A stretch of DNA of 19,664 nucleotides from a virus (taxonomy: Monodnaviria; Loebvirae; Hofneiviricota; Faserviricetes; Tubulavirales; Inoviridae), in IMG/VR virus record IMGVR_UViG_2529292909_000007, positions 1 to 19,664 of that record, one strand, 5' to 3'. The notes under the pieces were generated by a model. The model made no database searches and was not told the origin of the DNA. It worked only from the letters and a program-made list of their open reading frames with translations. Both the position numbers and the translations under genes were made by a program. Positions within the stretch are counted from its first letter, which is position 1. Every line of letters begins with the position of its first letter. Positions 1 through 8,984 of this stretch are shown in pieces.

Positions 1-238
1 AGTTCCGGGCTGAGCCGGTTCTGGTTTGCTCTGGCTGCGCGTCGGTTTTCGGTTCATTATCAGCATCACTGGCCGCTGCTGCTGGCCCAATAAGTTTTTC
101 CAGCACCTCATCAACGTAAGTGTCGATTTGTGCCTCAAAATCCTTGCGGACCTGCGCTTTCAGCAACTTATTTACTTCACCGGAATACAGTGCCTGTTTT
201 ACCAGGTCTTCAGTGACGGTGCCTTTAATTTCTGGCAT
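1..238 (-). CDS. hypothetical protein, 5' part only (ORF runs off the window start)
   Basis: ATG at 238-236 on minus strand preceded by GGAGG (RC of 246-250); frame open to position 1; begins MPEIKGTVTEDLVKQALYSGEVNKLL. Absent from the supplied track, presumably because no stop lies in the window. Confidence 0.4.
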   Translation of the reverse strand, partial: MPEIKGTVTEDLVKQALYSGEVNKLLKAQVRKDFEAQIDTYVDEVLEKLIGPAAAASDADNEPKTDAQPEQTRTGSARN

Positions 239-273
239 GTATATCCTCCTTATGCGGGAATAAAGCCCTGCAA

Positions 274-456
274 TCAGGGCTGGGTCGGGTCTTTTGGGAG
301 CGGAGTTACCTGCGCTGTTTTACTGAGTTTTTCAGCTGCTGCGTCCTCAATTTTGCGGCGAACATAATTTCTGATGGCCTTATAACCACCACTCACCAGA
401 TATAACGCACATACTGCCGTGCAGAAATACAATAAAATAAGCTGTAAAAATGTCAT
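274..456 (-). CDS. small membrane protein (~60 aa): N-terminal hydrophobic helix, charged C-terminal tail
   Basis: Track ORF 274..468 starts at TTG; an internal ATG at 456-454 follows GGGAGGG. Translation MTFLQLILLYFCTAVCALYLVSGGYKAIRNYVRRK. No family recognised. Confidence 0.4.
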   Translation of the reverse strand: MTFLQLILLYFCTAVCALYLVSGGYKAIRNYVRRKIEDAAAEKLSKTAQVTPLPKDPTQP

Positions 457-471
457 TATCCCTCCCAATTA

Positions 472-498
472 TTGACATGGTGTTGACACCGGTAATAT
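472..498 (+). promoter_or_regulatory. candidate sigma70 promoter (tandem TTGACA hexamers, TAATAT -10-like)
   Basis: TTGACA at 472-477 and 483-488, TAATAT at 493-498; sits about 60 bp upstream of a plus-strand intrinsic terminator. Spacing is not ideal. Confidence 0.3.
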
Positions 499-552
499 CT
501 GTTAGGTAAAAAGGTGCACTGCATTTTTTGCTTTGGATATAACGATCTTTTT

Positions 553-594
553 GCCGCCGGTTTCTTGTTTTCCCTTACCGGCGGCATTTTTTTA
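553..594 (+). terminator. rho-independent terminator (plus strand)
   Basis: GC-rich 9 bp stem GCCGCCGGT (553-561) / ACCGGCGGC (577-585), 15 nt loop, then ATTTTTTTA (586-594). On the minus strand the hairpin is followed by an A-run, so it is unidirectional. Confidence 0.5.
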
Positions 595-600
595 TCCTGC

Positions 601-2655
601 TTACGCGTTATTCACTTCCACCACGATACTGTCAATCAGTACCGGGTAAGTCGCATTTTTAGTGATATCGGTCACGCGCAACTTGTCTGCCGTAAACGTG
701 CCGACCGGAGACTGCGACAGCATGAATGGTGTCCCGTCCTTACCATCAATGACCGGCGTCACCTCAATACTGTTGTTACCGGCAAAACGGAAGCCCAGCG
801 TATGCCATTCGTTATTAAATGCGCCGAATGACCCCAGCTTCGTGTTCTGCGCCGTGTTTCCTTTGTGATACATCACGTTAAGGTCTGTGGCATCGCTCTG
901 TACGTAGAACGATGCCAGCAGGTTATGACCGGCATTTCCTTCCAGAGTAACCCCTTGCGGCAGGGCAGAAACCGGCCAGTACAGCGCCAGTGCGTACTGA
1001 TTAGCCGTAAGCGCGCCATCGAGTTTAAAACGACAACTGACAAGACCACCTTTACCCAGCAGGTCCGCACCATTACCAGCATCATGCTCAAGGTACCAGG
1101 GGGCTCTTCCTGTTTCCTTGGTCAGTTTCATTGCCTTACCCCCGCTGGCTCCGGCATCATCCACGATTTGAGCCTTGCCACCTCCGGCAGCCCAACCCTG
1201 TGGTGTCAACCGTCCTTCAGACTCAGATGCCCGGTAAGCAAATAGCGTACTCATCGTCGTGGTGTCTGCGGGTGGCGTGGACGGTTTTGATGGTGTATCA
1301 GGTGACGGCTTCTCATCCGGTGGTGTCACGGTCTGCCCGCGCATCAGTTCAGCCGTGCGCCCTGCATGGAGCATAATAGCTGAGGCCAGACGGTCTGAAA
1401 TGACGCCCCTGCGTGCCCATGAGCTGAAATGGCTGTCACGCTGTGTCGAAACAAAACTGCCCTGGGTTCGGGATGCTGCACCGTAATACCCGACAGCCAC
1501 AATATCCGGGTCTTCCGCCGGAGCATTCGTTGGCGTGCTCTGTCCATTCTCATCCGTCAGGAACGGTACAAAGAAAATTTTCTGTGCTTCCTTGCCTTTG
1601 TAGCCACCGTATACTGCCTCATATTTATCGGTGCCAGCGTTTTTCCAGTAATACGTGGTATCACCGCAAATCCACGGCACCGTGGTGGCATTTCCACTCA
1701 CGCACTGCGCAGCAAGCGGAGCCAGGTCAGTTCTGAACTGCTGAACCATGGCCGTGAATAAACTATTATGCTGCTGGCTTCCTGAGGCAAGGTCTGCCTC
1801 TCCCTGCATCCAGACCACAGCCAGAAGTTTGTTTTTCGGGTTTTTCGCCAGCGCGACTTTGGTGCGGCTTACCAGGTCCTGATACAGAGGTTTACCGGCC
1901 CCCCAGCGTGAAGAATCAGCGGAAGCACCGCTGGCCTCACTGAATGAGCCGTCGGCTCCAGTGGTGAATGCTGACCCGCCACGACAACAGGGCACCAGAA
2001 GTATCCCGGCATTCTGTGGGATATAGGGAAGCAGTTTTTTGGCAATATGCAACCCCTGACCGACAGTCCCGTACTGGCCTTTTGCCAGATCAGCTTTCGG
2101 GTGGTTTATCCCGCTCATATCCTGAACATCATGCAGGCAGTGGTCTGCCGGAATGATGTCGTTGTATGTACACGACGTACCGTTGGGCGTTACCGTACTG
2201 CGGCGTGCCAGTTGCTTAATGCGTGGGTCCGGGCGGTCAAACGAATCCGGTAACGGCAGCCCCTCGCCGTAGGCCATGCCATTTGACTGACCCGCGAGAA
2301 TGACAACAAAGTAATATTCCGGCTCTGAACTGCTGCCATTCGTGCTACCGGAAGGCCCGGCGTTATCCGGTGCATTCCAGTCGGAGGGCGTGAGCGTTCC
2401 GGCCACGTCAGATGTGATTGGAATGATGCCAGTCACGCCTGAACTGGTGATTTCTGCACTGGGATTACCGGATACCGGCATTACCCATAATGGCTCTTTC
2501 GTGCTGAAGCGGATCACGCAGTCTGCGAAGGTGATCCCCCCTTTATTACCCGAAGGGCGGAAAGGGCTTTCAATAAATGCCACCGTGCCACCGGCAACCT
2601 TGACTGAAAACTCTCCGGGCATGGCGGAGAGCATTTTCCACTTGGAGTCTGACAT
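601..2655 (-). CDS. prophage NanS-p-like sialate O-acetylesterase (SGNH/SASA-domain protein), 684 aa
   Basis: Long ORF containing VVILAGQSNGMAYGEG (GQSN active-site motif of the SASA/DUF303 esterase family) with a Pro/Thr-rich linker and C-terminal beta-rich domain. Family assignment is from recalled motifs. Confidence 0.7.
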   Translation of the reverse strand: MSDSKWKMLSAMPGEFSVKVAGGTVAFIESPFRPSGNKGGITFADCVIRFSTKEPLWVMPVSGNPSAEITSSGVTGIIPITSDVAGTLTPSDWNAPDNAGPSGSTNGSSSEPEYYFVVILAGQSNGMAYGEGLPLPDSFDRPDPRIKQLARRSTVTPNGTSCTYNDIIPADHCLHDVQDMSGINHPKADLAKGQYGTVGQGLHIAKKLLPYIPQNAGILLVPCCRGGSAFTTGADGSFSEASGASADSSRWGAGKPLYQDLVSRTKVALAKNPKNKLLAVVWMQGEADLASGSQQHNSLFTAMVQQFRTDLAPLAAQCVSGNATTVPWICGDTTYYWKNAGTDKYEAVYGGYKGKEAQKIFFVPFLTDENGQSTPTNAPAEDPDIVAVGYYGAASRTQGSFVSTQRDSHFSSWARRGVISDRLASAIMLHAGRTAELMRGQTVTPPDEKPSPDTPSKPSTPPADTTTMSTLFAYRASESEGRLTPQGWAAGGGKAQIVDDAGASGGKAMKLTKETGRAPWYLEHDAGNGADLLGKGGLVSCRFKLDGALTANQYALALYWPVSALPQGVTLEGNAGHNLLASFYVQSDATDLNVMYHKGNTAQNTKLGSFGAFNNEWHTLGFRFAGNNSIEVTPVIDGKDGTPFMLSQSPVGTFTADKLRVTDITKNATYPVLIDSIVVEVNNA

Positions 2656-2740
2656 CGTCTTTTCTGCCTGTTTCTGAATTAAACAGAGTCAGAATAGCGA
2701 CCGCTGAAAAATATGTGTTTTGCGGAAATTCAAAAAAGCG

Positions 2741-3313
2741 TCACGGTACTTTTGGTGACGGAGCTGGTGAGGCAGGAAAATAACGATAAAGGGTGGAAAG
2801 GCCAATATCAAATATCAGTGCGATTTGTTTACGGGACTCGCCATTAGCCAGCAAACGGGCGATTTGCTCCCGCTCTTTCTCTGTCAGTTTCTGAGGTCTG
2901 CCGCCATGACGCCCCTGAGCACGGGCAGCAGCAAGACCCGCGCGTGTACGTTCAATAATGAGTTCCCGCTCCATTTCCGCCAGCGCGCCCATTATATGGA
3001 AAAAGAAACGTCCCATGGGAGTGGATGTATCAATATTGTCCGTAATGCTGCGGAAGTTAACGCCGCGTTGCCGGAGTTCTTCTGTTAAAAGGACAAGGTG
3101 CTGCATACTGCGTCCAAGGCGATCCAGTTTCCAGACCAGCAGGGTATCCCCTGGCCGGAGTCGCTTTAATGCGCGTTTAAGTCCGGGACGCTCCCTTGTC
3201 TTACCGCTTATTCTGTCTTCGAAAAACAGCTCACATCCTGCACATTCCAGCGCATTTCTTTGTAGCGCCGTATTCTGGTCATTTGTTGACACCCTGATAT
3301 ACCCAATCAGCAT
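2741..3313 (-). CDS. serine DNA invertase, Gin/Pin/Hin/Cin family (190 aa)
   Basis: MLIGYIRVSTNDQNTALQRN...VWKLDRLGRSM...FFFHIMGALAEMERELIIERT is near-identical in pattern to Mu Gin / e14 Pin, with catalytic Ser in the YIRVST motif and a C-terminal HTH. Confidence 0.9.
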   Translation of the reverse strand: MLIGYIRVSTNDQNTALQRNALECAGCELFFEDRISGKTRERPGLKRALKRLRPGDTLLVWKLDRLGRSMQHLVLLTEELRQRGVNFRSITDNIDTSTPMGRFFFHIMGALAEMERELIIERTRAGLAAARAQGRHGGRPQKLTEKEREQIARLLANGESRKQIALIFDIGLSTLYRYFPASPAPSPKVP

Positions 3314-3378
3314 ACGATTTCCTTATTATAAAAAGCCGGAATTGTCGCATGAGGAATAAAACAGAGTTAATCCTGGCT

Positions 3379-3404
3379 TTCCTGAAAACCTCGGTTTACG
3401 GGAA
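3379..3404. other. left inversion crossover site (gix/hix-like 26 bp site)
   Basis: TTCCTGAAAACCTCGGTTTACGGGAA resembles Mu gixL (TTCCTGTAAACCGAGGTTTTGGATAA, recalled) and lies immediately next to the invertase gene. Confidence 0.7.
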
Positions 3405-3470
3405 ACGGTGAATAAGGCGGCGAATGCTCTGCCATCGGACGGCACCGCCGTTGCCGCGAATAGACTCGCC
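3391..3470. repeat. left arm of ~80 bp inverted repeat inside the invertible segment
   Basis: 3391-3470 matches the reverse complement of 4630-4709 with few mismatches; both encode ...[17 protein letters not shown]... Confidence 0.8.
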
Positions 3471-3752
3471 ACCCCAAGAAATATTAATGGGGTTCCCTTT
3501 GACGGGACGAAGGACATAAACATCACTTCTGGTATAACACAGCAGGATGCGGATTCCCGATATATCCAGGATATCAGGCTGGGAGCAGAGAACAGGCAGG
3601 TAATGTACGGTGGGGCATATTACTCTGCGTACGGTAATGTTATGGCAGGCCTGCAGATTGACAGTAAAGTTGATGCTTCAAACGATTTTATAGCATTCAG
3701 ACCCCTGCAAAAATTAGTCGGAGGTACATGGATTACGGTATCTCAGTTATAA
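3408..3752 (+). CDS. alternative tail-fibre C-terminal exon (silent in this orientation)
   Basis: Frame is open back to the crossover site; begins with the same IR-encoded peptide ([26 protein letters not shown]) as the expressed fibre, then diverges. Confidence 0.6.
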   Translation: MNKAANALPSDGTAVAANRLATPRNINGVPFDGTKDINITSGITQQDADSRYIQDIRLGAENRQVMYGGAYYSAYGNVMAGLQIDSKVDASNDFIAFRPLQKLVGGTWITVSQL

Positions 3753-3803
3753 ATAGTCAGTAAATAATATATTTTAAAACAGATTTATTTCCAGGAGGAT
3801 TTT

Positions 3804-4325
3804 ATGGAACTAAAAAATATAACCCGTTATTATCCTGAAAATATGCCATATGGTAATAATGTTCAGTATTTCCAGAGTGAAGATGGTAAGGATTTCTACG
3901 AATCCCTGCCATTATTCACCAAAAAATATAAACTTTGCATAACACCTGACAGCGGCGTTATCTGCTCAATATCACAGGACGCCTCGGCGCTGTATCCTGC
4001 GGGGTTTTCTGTGGTTGAGGTCGATGAACTCCCTGAAGGCACGGATATTTCAGGAAACTGGAAGTTTGATAATGGCATAATCTCCCGTATTCCGGTTAAC
4101 TACGCAAGAAAACTGGAAGCAATGCGCCAGTCATATCTTAATCAGGCATATGAAAAAATTAATGACTGGAGAACGGAGCTACAACTGGGCACCATCAGCG
4201 ATGAAGACAGAGCAGCACTTACCCAATGGATGGCATACATCAGTCAGGTGAAGAAAATGGAACTACCCGCCATTAAAACAGAAGCTGAATTTAACGCCAT
4301 TAAATGGCCTGAGCAGCCACAGTAA
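3804..4325 (+). CDS. tail fibre assembly protein (Tfa/U-like chaperone), 173 aa
   Basis: AGGAGG before the ATG; lies immediately downstream of the alternative fibre exon; C-terminal region resembles the Tfa family. Confidence 0.75.
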   Translation: MELKNITRYYPENMPYGNNVQYFQSEDGKDFYESLPLFTKKYKLCITPDSGVICSISQDASALYPAGFSVVEVDELPEGTDISGNWKFDNGIISRIPVNYARKLEAMRQSYLNQAYEKINDWRTELQLGTISDEDRAALTQWMAYISQVKKMELPAIKTEAEFNAIKWPEQPQ

Positions 4326-4328
4326 TAA

Positions 4329-4348
4329 AGAAGGCCGGAAGGCCTTCT
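4329..4348. terminator. hairpin between convergent genes, candidate bidirectional terminator
   Basis: Perfect 8 bp stem AGAAGGCC / GGCCTTCT with GGAA loop between the Tfa stop (4325) and the fibre stop (4357). Confidence 0.45.
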
Positions 4349-4356
4349 GAATATCA

Positions 4357-5238
4357 TTATATACTTGCAGCCGTCACCCATGCTCCATTTAACAGATACT
4401 GCAACGGCCGGTAATACACGCCGCCGACGTTATCTGCCGTATTCTTACCGACATCCTGTACTTTAATTCCGGTAAGAACATTGCCGCCCCCCAGATTCAG
4501 ATCCCAGCTTTCCCATGTTCCGGGCATATGTGCGGTCACCGACCCCAGTCTTATGGCGGTTACTGTTCCTGATGAGATAGTGATATCCTGCGTCCCGTCA
4601 AAGGGAACACCATTAATTGTGTGGGCATTTGCCAGCCTGTTCGCGGCAACGGCGGTGCCGTCCGATGGCAGGGCATTCGCCGCCCTGTTTACCGTTTCCC
4701 GTAAACCGACGTTATCGATAAAAGCCCCTTTATCCGGAATGTCTGCGCCGTTCTGCTCCCTGCGCAGGTAACGGTTATCACCTTCGCTTTTGCTGTAAAC
4801 ATCCAGATTATTACGGGCGGTTCCCTTATTCTCCAGGTCGGCGAGATTCTGATCCTTCGCCAGGGCATTAACGTCAGCGGGACCAAGACTGTTTTTTGTG
4901 GCAAGCGTCCCCAGACCAAGATAACCACGGGCCAGACGCTGGGCCTCCGCACCGGCATCAGCAATTTCTTTCAGGTTATTTTTCCGGGAAAAGGCATTCG
5001 CAGCGATAATGGCTTTAATGGACAGCGTAAGCTGGTTTAACTGCGCCTTATCCGGCTGAATACTGGCTTCAGCCAGAATATTCAGCAGTTCGGCCTGGAG
5101 AATATTCAGCCAGTCCTGACCAATCCAGCTGATACCTTTTTGTCCGTCACCTTCGGTAAACCAGGTGGTGGTATTACTCTGCGCCGGTGCCAGCGCAGGC
5201 ATATTCGCCACGCCGGAATTATTATCAACATGAAACAT
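4357..5238 (-). CDS. tail fibre protein (293 aa); constant N-terminal part outside, variable C-terminus inside the invertible segment
   Basis: N-terminus [10 protein letters not shown]...WFTEGDGQ is a tail-fibre-type N-terminus as recalled for Mu S-like fibres; the ORF crosses the right crossover site; GGAG RBS upstream. Confidence 0.75.
4630..4709. repeat. right arm of ~80 bp inverted repeat inside the invertible segment
   Basis: Reverse complement matches 3391-3470. Confidence 0.8.
4696..4721. other. right inversion crossover site (gix/hix-like)
   Basis: TTCCCGTAAACCGACGTTATCGATAA; its inner half is the reverse complement of the left site's inner half. Confidence 0.7.
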
Positions 5239-5378
5239 TAAATAGTCTCCTCTTCATGGCTGTTTGCATAAACGTAAATAAACGTCTGCCATGCAGGCTT
5301 ATAACGGTTCAGAATACATTCCAGCGCACCGCCTTCATAAATACGCAGCGGCGTGAGAATATCATCCAGCACATTCAT
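5238..5378 (-). CDS. small ORF (46 aa) whose stop overlaps the tail-fibre start (TAATG)
   Basis: Translation [46 protein letters not shown]. No clear SD; below the track's length cutoff. Confidence 0.25.
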
Positions 5379-5433
5379 ATTCCGGTAAATTCATTTTGTT
5401 ACCGCAGGATTGCATATTCATATAACACCTCAT

Positions 5434-5661
5434 TTAGCTGACTTGTTTCGCACCAACAGAACGGCATATTCCGCTGTAAACTTCTGTCGCACCTTCGCGA
5501 TCAAGTCCGGCAGATATCACCATTCGTGTGCGGTCATTAAATTCAAAAAGTAAATCGCCACATGCTTTATTTTCGGCCAGTGAAATCACCTTCACGTTAT
5601 CGAAATTAACCAGGTAAAAGCGTCCGTAAATATCAGGAATATTAAATACCGCCATAATCAC
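5434..5661 (-). CDS. hypothetical 75 aa protein directly downstream of the B-like gene (position of Mu kil)
   Basis: Start overlaps the B stop (ATGA/GTG at 5661-5658). Assignment is by position only; no sequence recognition. Confidence 0.4.
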   Translation of the reverse strand: MIMAVFNIPDIYGRFYLVNFDNVKVISLAENKACGDLLFEFNDRTRMVISAGLDREGATEVYSGICRSVGAKQVS

Positions 5662-6589
5662 ACCTGTGAGAGTAATTCAGGGTTGGTATAAACCTCTTTA
5701 AAGGCCGCATTAATATGTTTTTCTGTCAGCGCCGCGCCTTCACCGCTGGCGGTGAGCCACGCCTGGTTAAGCGTATGTGTCAGAACACGTAATGCTCCCG
5801 GCTTTTCAGCGATAGCCTGCATGACGGCCAGCTCGGCCTCACACTGATACCCCATGCCCTGGCAATGGCCAGCACATCCGCCTTTTTGGCCTTGCGAAGT
5901 TGTTTTGTACGGGCAAGACGGCTGAACAGGCGCGATAAATCATCAAAGGCGCGGCGTCCACCTTTAAACAATCCGCGCGGGTTACCAATAAGCACCATCC
6001 CGATCCCCGTGGCGTCCTGAATTGCCCGGAGTTGCTCCAGACCGTCAATACCAAGATGATCCGCCTCATCCACAATCACCAGTCCACGCGTTCCCGTCAG
6101 GCGACGGCGGATGGCGCGGGATAATGCCCCTTTGTTCGCGCGGGTGTAATCAATCCCCAGCGCATCGGCCAGCTCCAGCAGACACTCCGTGACGCTGGAG
6201 TGCGCGGGTGACAGGGTGATCATCCAGGTGTTTGGTTGCTCCTGGCAGTAATTACGGGCAGTGGCCGTTTTACCCACACCCGGTACGCCCACAATAACGT
6301 TAATACAGCCCATCAGGCGAACCGCCTGAAACAGTGCGCGCAGCTCCTGGACTGTCTGAGTTTCCACAAACTGCGGCGGTTCCGGCAGTGCGCTTTGTTT
6401 ATTCCAGTTCTCATACCAGGAGCGCAGGGAAGCAGCCACAGCGGCGTTATCGCCTTTATATTTCCCCTTGCGGAAAGCCGATAATGTGCCGTCGGAAATT
6501 CCCGCCTCTCTGGCGATGGCATACTGCGTCAGTACGCCGCCATCAATAAGTTCATCAATGGTCTTGATTACATCGTTTATATCGGTCAT
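5658..6589 (-). pseudogene. Mu B-like AAA+ transposition ATPase, split by an apparent -1 frameshift at C4 run 5850-5853
   Basis: Track ORF 5780..6589 carries Walker A GVPGVGKT and Walker B LVIVDEADHL. The C-terminal domain continues in ORF 5658..5855 (AEKPGALRVLTHTL), matching the recalled MuB C-terminus. One extra G/C in the run would give a single ~310 aa ORF. Confidence 0.8.
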
Positions 6590-6663
6590 ATTATTACCTC
6601 GCGTTTGTGTAGTTCCTTTGTTTAATCAAATAACCTGAGTCGCCGCTCGGGTTATTTTTTATT

Positions 6664-8751
6664 TCAGGCCAGAGGGTCATTTTCTTTTAATTTCGCTTCG
6701 AGCAACTGCAATCCCCGCTGGAAATTACGCTCGTATTCTTCATCAGGCTCATCATCAACGGCAGGTTGCTGAACGGTCACCGTATTACCCACAGGGCGGT
6801 ATATGTTTTCCAGCCAGGGCTCCTGCGGCTTGTGCTCCAGCACGTTGACAACCTCATCCTCGGCATCACGGATTTTTTCCTCTGCGCGTTTACGCATACC
6901 TTTAAGGCGTTGCTGCTGTTTGTAGTATTCCGCGCTGACCGGGAAGGCTTCGCGTTTATTGCCGTCCCATACCGCCTCGCAAATCACGCTGCCATCCGGG
7001 CGACGTACGGTAATTCGTTCGGCATCATGAATGTCATAGCTGATAAGCACCTTGCGGCCATGCTCATCACTCAGCTCGGGCGCGTAGTAAATATTATTCA
7101 GCCAGCGTATTTCACAGCGTCTTACAGGGCGTTTCACCATCGGCCGGAACATATCCCGCAGCTCAACATCGGACAGCCATTCAATTTCCGTGTCCTCTTC
7201 TGCCAGGCGTTTTTTTCTGAACTCCGCCGGGCTGTAATGCTTACCGTTCGGCTTCATGGGTAATTCATCGTGCGGCCGGTTGTTGTACCACTCAACACCG
7301 TCACGAATGGCATCAATCAGTTCAGACCAGGACGGTAAATCACGCATCGCTGACTGCTGCCGGGCGTTCAGCCGCTTACCCTGTTGCAGGGCATTAAATG
7401 CCGAGCGTAAATCGCGGTTGGTTTTGCGTAACGTCTCGCGATCTGCACCTTTTCCGAAATAGGTGCGGTATTTACGGGCTATGCGCATCGGTAATGTGCG
7501 GTTAAGCCGTTCGATAATGCCCCGTCCCTGCGGGTTACCGGCAATCCCGGTCGGGTGATTAATCCCCAGGCGCGGCAGGATCCCCACAACCTCCTTATCC
7601 AGGATGTCGGCGGTTTCCCCCGAGCCGTTATCCGAGTAATACAGAAACGGTTTGCCGTGATGGCGAATGCCGTGCTGTATGGCACCGGCTACAGCGAAAA
7701 CATTTTCAGCCAGATCAAGGCTCCAGCCCACCACAAAGCGCGTGCCACCGTCGATAACAAAGGTCACTTCCGGTGCGAATGGCCGCCCGTGAACCGGGTG
7801 CGCACATTTCAGCTTCATGCCGTGACCGTCACCAATCCAGACATAATTCACCGGCATTTTTGACCAGTCGCGGCGCGTGAATCCCTCAAGCTGGCGGTAT
7901 TCACTGCCGGTAACCCGTCCTTTTTGTTTCACCACTTCCGGCAGTTTCTTCATTGCGCGGCGAATGGTGTCATAAGACGGCATGATATCGAGCATATAAG
8001 GCTCATCAGCGTGCCGGTGCTGCCATTCGGCAACAAAATCCTCGTAAGCCTCGGTCATTGGTCGGCCGTTTGACTGGCGATACTGCGCCAGAAATTCGGG
8101 CAACCAGTTAATATCTTCGGCTTTTATTTCCTGGCGTTTACCTGGTGCCAGCAAAAGCAGGCGTTCAGCAGCGTTCTGTGCCTTATTAAAGGCCGCAATC
8201 CAGCGTTTCAGCGTGATTTCACTCAACACGCGACTGTTTCCCTTTCTGGCGTTCGCTATCTCAACCATTGCCACAATGCGCTCATCCAGTTGCGAGTGTG
8301 ACAGGCGGTCAACGATGAACCGGATAGCTTTAGCGCAGCTGAAACCGGGTTGTTGCGTGAATTTCAGCACCTCACTGACGATCGCAATGCGTGCGTCTGC
8401 CACCTGGCGCTGGTTTTCAGTCAGGGCATTGAGGCGTTCGACCATCAGTTGTGGTGATCCGCGATATGCCTCCACCGCATCAACCACGGCAGACGAGCGT
8501 CTGGCCTTTGTCACCACCGGAGCCGGTGATTCATCGGCTTTTTGCGTCATCAGTTGCAGGGCATAACGTTCGCGTAATGCCTGCTGTGTCACTTCAGGTA
8601 AACAGTCAATGCTGTATTCAAAACCTTTAGCGCCTTTCTTGCGGCGTCTGCTGGTTTCGCTGGTTGCATACTTCCTGATTGAATAGCGAACGCCTTGCTC
8701 CGTTCCCGGCATCCCCGGTAATCCAACCAGTTCTTTGACTGAAGCAAACAT
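6664..8751 (-). CDS. Mu-type DDE transposase (MuA-like), 695 aa
   Basis: Size and position immediately downstream of a Ner homologue and upstream of the B-like ATPase; long single ORF typical of MuA-family transposases. Confidence 0.85.
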   Translation of the reverse strand: MFASVKELVGLPGMPGTEQGVRYSIRKYATSETSRRRKKGAKGFEYSIDCLPEVTQQALRERYALQLMTQKADESPAPVVTKARRSSAVVDAVEAYRGSPQLMVERLNALTENQRQVADARIAIVSEVLKFTQQPGFSCAKAIRFIVDRLSHSQLDERIVAMVEIANARKGNSRVLSEITLKRWIAAFNKAQNAAERLLLLAPGKRQEIKAEDINWLPEFLAQYRQSNGRPMTEAYEDFVAEWQHRHADEPYMLDIMPSYDTIRRAMKKLPEVVKQKGRVTGSEYRQLEGFTRRDWSKMPVNYVWIGDGHGMKLKCAHPVHGRPFAPEVTFVIDGGTRFVVGWSLDLAENVFAVAGAIQHGIRHHGKPFLYYSDNGSGETADILDKEVVGILPRLGINHPTGIAGNPQGRGIIERLNRTLPMRIARKYRTYFGKGADRETLRKTNRDLRSAFNALQQGKRLNARQQSAMRDLPSWSELIDAIRDGVEWYNNRPHDELPMKPNGKHYSPAEFRKKRLAEEDTEIEWLSDVELRDMFRPMVKRPVRRCEIRWLNNIYYAPELSDEHGRKVLISYDIHDAERITVRRPDGSVICEAVWDGNKREAFPVSAEYYKQQQRLKGMRKRAEEKIRDAEDEVVNVLEHKPQEPWLENIYRPVGNTVTVQQPAVDDEPDEEYERNFQRGLQLLEAKLKENDPLA

Positions 8752-8753
8752 AA

Positions 8754-8984
8754 TTACGCGACCTTACGAATGTAGCGGCTGGGCCAAATCTCCTCGGGCG
8801 GCACCCCCAGGCATTCCGCGATAATCCCCTCATACTTGGGAACATGGCGGTATACCGCGTTGTACAGATTGTTCTGACCCACGCCAGCTTTACGGGCCAG
8901 CGCCCTCATGCTTCCTTCTCTGGCTCTGACTTCCCCCAAAATTCTTTGAGGATGCCAATCAGGCTTAACTTCATTTCTCGCCAT
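8754..8984 (-). CDS. ner: Ner-like DNA-binding regulator (76 aa)
   Basis: MARNEVKPDWHPQRILGEV...EEIWPSRY carries the DWH and IWPSRY motifs of Mu Ner / Nlp; divergent from the repressor. Confidence 0.85.
   Translation of the reverse strand: MARNEVKPDWHPQRILGEVRAREGSMRALARKAGVGQNNLYNAVYRHVPKYEGIIAECLGVPPEEIWPSRYIRKVA

Follow-up and report, generated by a model that had tools for sequence, protein, structure and literature searches.

Laboratory mini-Mu elements consist of both ends together with the A and B genes. The B protein of phage Mu (MuB) has a length of 312 aa and comprises an N-terminal HTH-like domain, an AAA+ core with the Walker A and Walker B motifs, and a C-terminal MuB_C domain. 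Phage Mu without MuB transposes in vivo at about 1/100 of the wild-type level, i.e., transposition is not abolished; in the delta-MuB phage cis-immunity is lost, while the protection against self-insertion is largely kept (PMC7350765).

The sequence analyzed here (the window, 19,664 nt) is the whole of a draft contig of E. coli DEC6D (AIFY01000031.1, assembly GCA_000249655.2). It harbors a gene for a MuB-type AAA+ transposition ATPase on the minus strand (5658..6589). This gene shares with MuB the three-domain organization given above and nearly its length (310 aa in the repaired protein); unlike MuB, the deposited gene is interrupted after codon 249. The order repressor-ner-A-B is common to phage Mu and the element in DEC6D.

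The split MuB-type gene

The recorded gene comprises 932 nt, a multiple of three minus one, whereas the gene in relatives comprises 933 nt and encodes 310 aa. The preliminary description of this DNA had reported a Mu B-like ATPase whose Walker A/B part and C-terminal part occupy two overlapping frames, and both parts are present as described. The upstream-frame ORF (5780..6589, minus strand, 269 aa) is deposited as EHV72856.1 [E. coli DEC6D] and contains the Walker A motif GVPGVGKT (residues 101-108; 6266..6289, minus strand) and the Walker B motif LVIVDEAD (residues 170-177; 6059..6082, minus strand). The downstream-frame ORF (5658..5855, minus strand, 65 aa) contains what remains of the MuB C-terminal domain. 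The two ORFs overlap in differing frames over 76 nt (5780-5855). Residues 1-249 of the 269-aa ORF are native, and residues 250-269 are an out-of-frame tail, VRPSWPSCRLSLKSREHYVF; the frameshift after codon 249 exchanges the final 61 residues of the protein for this 20-residue tail. The Phage-MuB_C domain (PF09077; 78 profile positions) is consequently divided in the deposited sequence: profile positions 1-26 close the first ORF, and positions 27-77 are found in the second.

When the window was aligned to two intact 933-nt homologues, the B gene contained exactly one gap. The gap is located at 5842..5843, where the relatives have CC (GG in the coding strand, within GTGGTG) and the window has a single C (GTGTG). 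In the alignment with the homologues and the sister assembly (see below), the plus strand at this site reads CACCACTG in the relatives and CACACTG in the window; the corresponding coding-strand sequences are AGTGGTGAGG and AGT-GTGAGG. Restoring one G results in a single 310-aa protein. The lesion thus falls within a two-base run, 7 nt away from the run of four Cs (5850..5853) at which the preliminary description had located the split. Slippage in the C4 run was rejected as the cause, because Z869 and S1-CAM-01-A, relatives whose gene is intact, likewise have four Cs at this position. In one relative the run is a C5; this is due to a substitution and leaves the frame unaltered.

The repaired 310-aa protein aligns colinearly with the B protein of phage Mu (48% identity over 300 aa, E=2e-97). 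It has structure matches to MuB (8xvb, E=2e-84), to the MuB C-terminal domain (1f6v, E=3e-19), and to the N-terminal domain (2mqk, E=8e-7). The Pfam domain AAA_22 covers residues 98-207 (E=2.9e-18), and in the repaired and the sister sequence Phage-MuB_C is complete and scores above the curated cut-off (residues 223-299, E=2.5e-25). The gene directly follows that for a Mu-type DDE transposase A and belongs to an early operon with the order repressor-ner-A-B. Sequence, structure matches, and gene context all agree with the MuB-like identity proposed earlier, and at the level of sequence the gene is securely a true MuB homologue. Its product is predicted to be an ordinary MuB-type AAA+ target-DNA activator of a Mu-like prophage remnant. 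The family is diverged; at the DNA level, phages Mu, D108, and SfMu are only about 67% similar to the B region, over 257 nt.

The overlapping frames raise the question of a functional split, i.e., a programmed -1 ribosomal frameshift that restores B, or two separately made parts that cooperate. An ATG at 5855 opens the downstream frame within the overlap, and a -1 shift at any position from 5780 to 5855 would bring the two frames back together. However, B is a single uninterrupted ORF in every relative examined, including the otherwise identical sister locus, and the break runs through the folded C-terminal domain, between profile positions 26 and 27. Reading the sequence of the overlap (5780-5855) directly, we found no slippery heptamer of the form X XXY YYZ in the zero frame. 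Given that a slippery site is absent and that the split is not conserved, programmed frameshifting was rejected; we regard a functional split of either kind as extremely improbable.

Comparison with the sister assembly

A look-up with the transposase protein led to two further assemblies of the locus: the sister assembly (AIFZ01000020.1, GCA_000249675.2; a 278-kb contig), and a 5.4-kb Logan contig, which derives from run SRR094971 by a separate, independent assembly. B is intact in both of them and encodes 310 aa. The repaired protein from the window is identical to the protein encoded at the sister locus, and the transposase A proteins of the window and the sister assembly are identical as well. 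The sister locus also matches the window in the prophage-host junction at ydeS, in the internal deletion junction, and in the neighboring filamentous prophage; neither of the two junctions was found in 5,426 complete E. coli genomes.

Over the 14.4 kb from 5255 to 19664, the window differs from the sister assembly by eight one-base indels and by two adjacent substitutions within a multicopy IS1 (19599-19600). Seven of the eight indels are located in homopolymers of 5-7 bases (at 19486, 17810, 17717, 17383, 13541, 9085, and 6661), and the eighth is the lesion in B. Expressed by class of run, indels affect 7 of the 87 runs of at least five bases and 1 of the 2,135 two-base runs, the latter being the B lesion. 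The indel at 13541 (T5 vs. T6) splits the secretin gene of the filamentous phage into ORFs of 138 and 289 aa; in the sister assembly this gene is intact (426 aa). At positions 9085, 6661, and 5843 the third assembly sides with the sister assembly against the window, and no strain-discriminating substitution was found within the 5.4-kb SRR094971 contig. Near the end of the contig, at position 27, the window has an extra T (TTT, vs. TT in close relatives). The one-base differences at 27, 6661, 9085, 13541, 17383, 17717, 17810, and 19486 are probably assembly errors. The DEC6D contig that carries the locus measures 19.7 kb, against 278 kb for its counterpart in the sister assembly; this is consistent with a poorer assembly of DEC6D.

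Many indels in homopolymers combined with essentially no substitutions are the signature of consensus errors in flow-based sequencing chemistry, since diverging genomes would show substitutions too. Because the same locus is intact in the sister genome, we favor the same kind of explanation for B: the split is probably a consensus or base-calling error in a low-quality draft assembly, and the fault most likely resides in the consensus of DEC6D, not in its chromosome. The C missing at 5842/5843 would then be a consensus error, and the real gene would be a single 310-aa ORF, as it is in the sister isolate. Two observations count against an error. The B lesion is alone among the eight indels in being located outside a run of at least five bases, which makes it a less typical site for a homopolymer error; and frameshifts are common in decaying prophage remnants. 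B is also lost in relatives by other routes, as in AST198, where a deletion has truncated it.

Three points favor a real and recent frameshift private to DEC6D, which would cut B after residue 249 and remove two thirds of the MuB C-terminal domain: homopolymer-type errors are uncommon in two-base runs, the element is not viable and no selection obviously acts on it, and other remnants of the same prophage family have lost B. We nevertheless consider a private frameshift unlikely. The sister locus is identical and has an intact gene, and the absence of true substitutions over about 19 kb indicates a very low divergence between the strains; the assemblies themselves, in contrast, often disagree (8 indels over 14.4 kb). 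The 269-aa product is encoded on the DEC6D contig and on no other. A pseudogene is recognized by a lesion that is reproduced in an independent sequence of the lineage; here the gene is intact in the sister assembly as well as in the one from SRR094971. If the frameshift were real, the DEC6D element would be an 11.7-kb natural mini-Mu of the A-only type, with an intact transposase, both ends, a repressor, and a MuB truncated in its C-terminal domain, and the sister strain would offer a twin with intact B for comparison. By analogy with Mu, its transposition would be expected to be about 100-fold lower and its cis-immunity to be gone.

Under the favored explanation of a consensus error, the proposal in the preliminary description that the element is deprived of B does not hold. 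The description itself had named a single ORF of about 310 aa in the corrected sequence as the result that would speak against it, and the addition of one base produces this ORF, which is identical to the gene at the sister locus; exactly the same 310-aa protein is encoded on 523 public contigs. The split is present in the deposited sequence and most likely does not reflect new biology; the gene is most likely an ordinary MuB homologue from a common family of Mu-like prophages of E. coli. The corrected picture is that of a remnant in which both transposition genes are intact. Measured against the sister assembly, the contig has a single-base indel about every 2 kb, and breaks in its reading frames should not be taken as biology unless reads are at hand; the secretin gene at 13541 is a second cautionary case on the same contig.

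The prophage remnant and its deletion endpoints

The left end of the prophage (9930..9959; 5'-TATAACCAGGTGAATCATTTGATACCG on the minus strand) abuts a truncated host ydeS gene, which begins at 9960. Inward from this end follow a divergent c-like repressor gene (9168..9713, plus strand; 181 aa, with homologues of 181 aa), a gene for a ner-like regulator (8754..8984, minus strand; 76 aa, HTH_35), and the intact gene for the Mu-type transposase A (6664..8751, minus strand; 695 aa, HTH_Tnp_Mu_1 and Mu-transpos_C). The retained left part of the prophage thus consists of the left end, repressor, ner, A, B, and a 73-aa ORF, with a kil-like gene downstream of B. At the internal deletion junction (5386..5387), the kil-like gene runs up to codon 12 and is followed directly by the final 46 codons of the gp48/YmfQ baseplate gene. 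Beyond the junction lies the right-end module of the prophage (1..5386, minus strand), with genes for a tail fibre (4357-5238), fibre assembly (3804-4325, plus strand), a Gin-type invertase (2741-3313), and a DUF6645/SASA protein (601-2655), as well as DUF1378 and DUF826 genes. The genes com and mom and the right end are located past the start of the contig; they are present in the sister contig, where the element totals 11.7 kb.

Compared to full-length relatives, about 27 kb are absent, comprising the remaining early genes, the lysis genes, all head genes, and most tail genes. Judged from this gene content, the element is a deletion remnant that cannot form phage, be B split or intact. Since these 27 kb are already lost, a loss of B would not decide the viability of the phage; it would matter little for a prophage that is already non-viable, given that the loss of MuB in Mu lowers transposition and does not abolish it.

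Three clustered substitutions at 3410-3415 distinguish the window from the sister assembly; apart from the IS1 pair at 19599-19600 they are the sole ones. The cluster lies directly next to CCTCGGTTTACGGGAAACGGT, a gix-like crossover site that belongs to the invertible tail-fibre segment, and in the sister assembly both repeat arms of this segment share one version of the 3410-3415 sequence.

The termini in this prophage family have the sequence 5'-T(A/G)TAACCAGG...CGCCGCGCTATA-3', and TTTGATACCG repeats begin 18 nt from each tip. Two insertions for which both flanks are available have a 4-bp target duplication (TTCA and CTAA), or one of 5 bp given the ambiguity; Mu makes 5 bp. The left flank of the remnant (9960-10305) is the N-terminal part of ydeS. 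To the right of the element, the sister contig contains a truncated gene for a nitrate reductase gamma subunit (narV-like), followed by genes for a PhzF-family protein and an N-acetyltransferase. The flanks of the remnant show no target-site duplication (TATAG vs. AGTGG). The spacing of ydeS and the genes on the narV side, which lie about 45 kb apart on the K-12 map, suggests a deletion of host DNA adjoining the prophage. From about 12380 to 18700, a filamentous (inovirus-like) prophage adjoins the ydeT usher gene. It encodes a fragment of a pII-type replication protein, an ssDNA-binding protein, a 564-aa protein, a DUF2523 protein, Zot, and a secretin. Among complete E. coli genomes, even the nearest copies of this prophage share only about 87% identity with it.

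DNA homologous to the B region was detected in 233 of the 5,426 complete E. coli genomes, many of them O157:H7. The Mu-like prophages of E. coli and Shigella are 93-99% identical to the window in the DNA of the B region and share with it the early-gene order and the right-end module; in comparison, the DEC6D copy has lost approximately 27 kb in the interval from the kil-like gene to the end of gp48, and its deposited B gene is one base short. An intact 933-nt CDS for a 310-aa 'AAA family ATPase' is annotated in every relative examined (DLI.5a, Z869, JMF1, and S1-CAM-01-A). Members of the family are also inserted in the Stx phages LC727881 and LC727895. Deletions have affected related prophages in several ways: in AST198 the truncated B is joined to the fibre assembly gene, JMF1 contains an IS903B-associated deletion, and several related remnants have two to four internal junctions, which leave prophage islands of 150-430 nt.

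We gathered further junction contigs by a search with the 46-aa remnant of gp48. The right side of the 5386/5387 junction (...|TACCGGAATATGAATG) is nucleotide-identical across many contigs and is located 9 nt upstream of an internal Met codon of gp48/YmfQ. The search does not force this endpoint, because no in-frame start codon is present within at least 60 nt upstream of the 46-aa ORF. The left partners of the gp48 endpoint are the kil-like gene (DEC6D and DEC6E), transposase A, gemA, gp43, and gp41, making at least five types of junction; in the cases checked, different types were found at different host sites. At the gp48-type break both partners natively have TA, often flanked by CCGG. A second recurrent breakpoint, GGCCGGG|TA, is located in gene A at about 7913/7914; depending on the genome, its right partner is one of three: the gp48 site, a position within the major head gene, or a position in A that lies 279 nt downstream. 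The breakpoints mostly conform to G-N|T-A, in many cases with N-C following and with CCGG at the flanks; the 38.9-kb prophage contains 415 copies of this tetranucleotide, roughly double the expected number.

The preferred target pentamer of Mu is CYSRG (PMC7350765). Left arms that end in CCGGG match this pentamer, which is insufficient for a complete mechanism. At the recurrent gp48 endpoint we found no hairpin (z = -0.36), and no inverted or direct copy of the endpoint was found elsewhere in the prophage. A pseudo transposase end was unsupported: a PWM built from six TTTGATACCG end repeats ranks the endpoint at 0.33 among all TA positions. The Gin-type invertase was dismissed as the cause of the endpoints, its crossover core being TC, not TA; and cutting by quinolone-gyrase, which follows the rule of cleavage before G (PMC6379681), has no obvious fit to them. 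Searches for the nine junction sequences gave no match in the 5,426 complete E. coli genomes or in the metagenome collection, and only two further copies of a junction that was already known in IMG/VR. Recurrent, nucleotide-exact endpoints may be the trace of a site-directed process, so far undescribed, by which these prophages are dismantled. We regard this recurrence as a lead, not a finding, and it is not tied to B or to the transposase.

Comparison with mini-Mu elements

With B intact, the remnant, composed of repressor, ner, A, B, the tail-fibre/invertase module, com/mom, and the ends, would encode both transposition proteins, and it would in effect be a natural mini-Mu. Like laboratory mini-Mu elements, it has both ends (the right one seen in the sister contig) and the A and B genes, here accompanied by repressor and ner, and it is without the lysis genes and most morphogenesis genes. 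Unlike these elements, the remnant is natural and has kept com/mom and the inversion module of the tail fibre; its likeness to mini-Mu is one of gene content.
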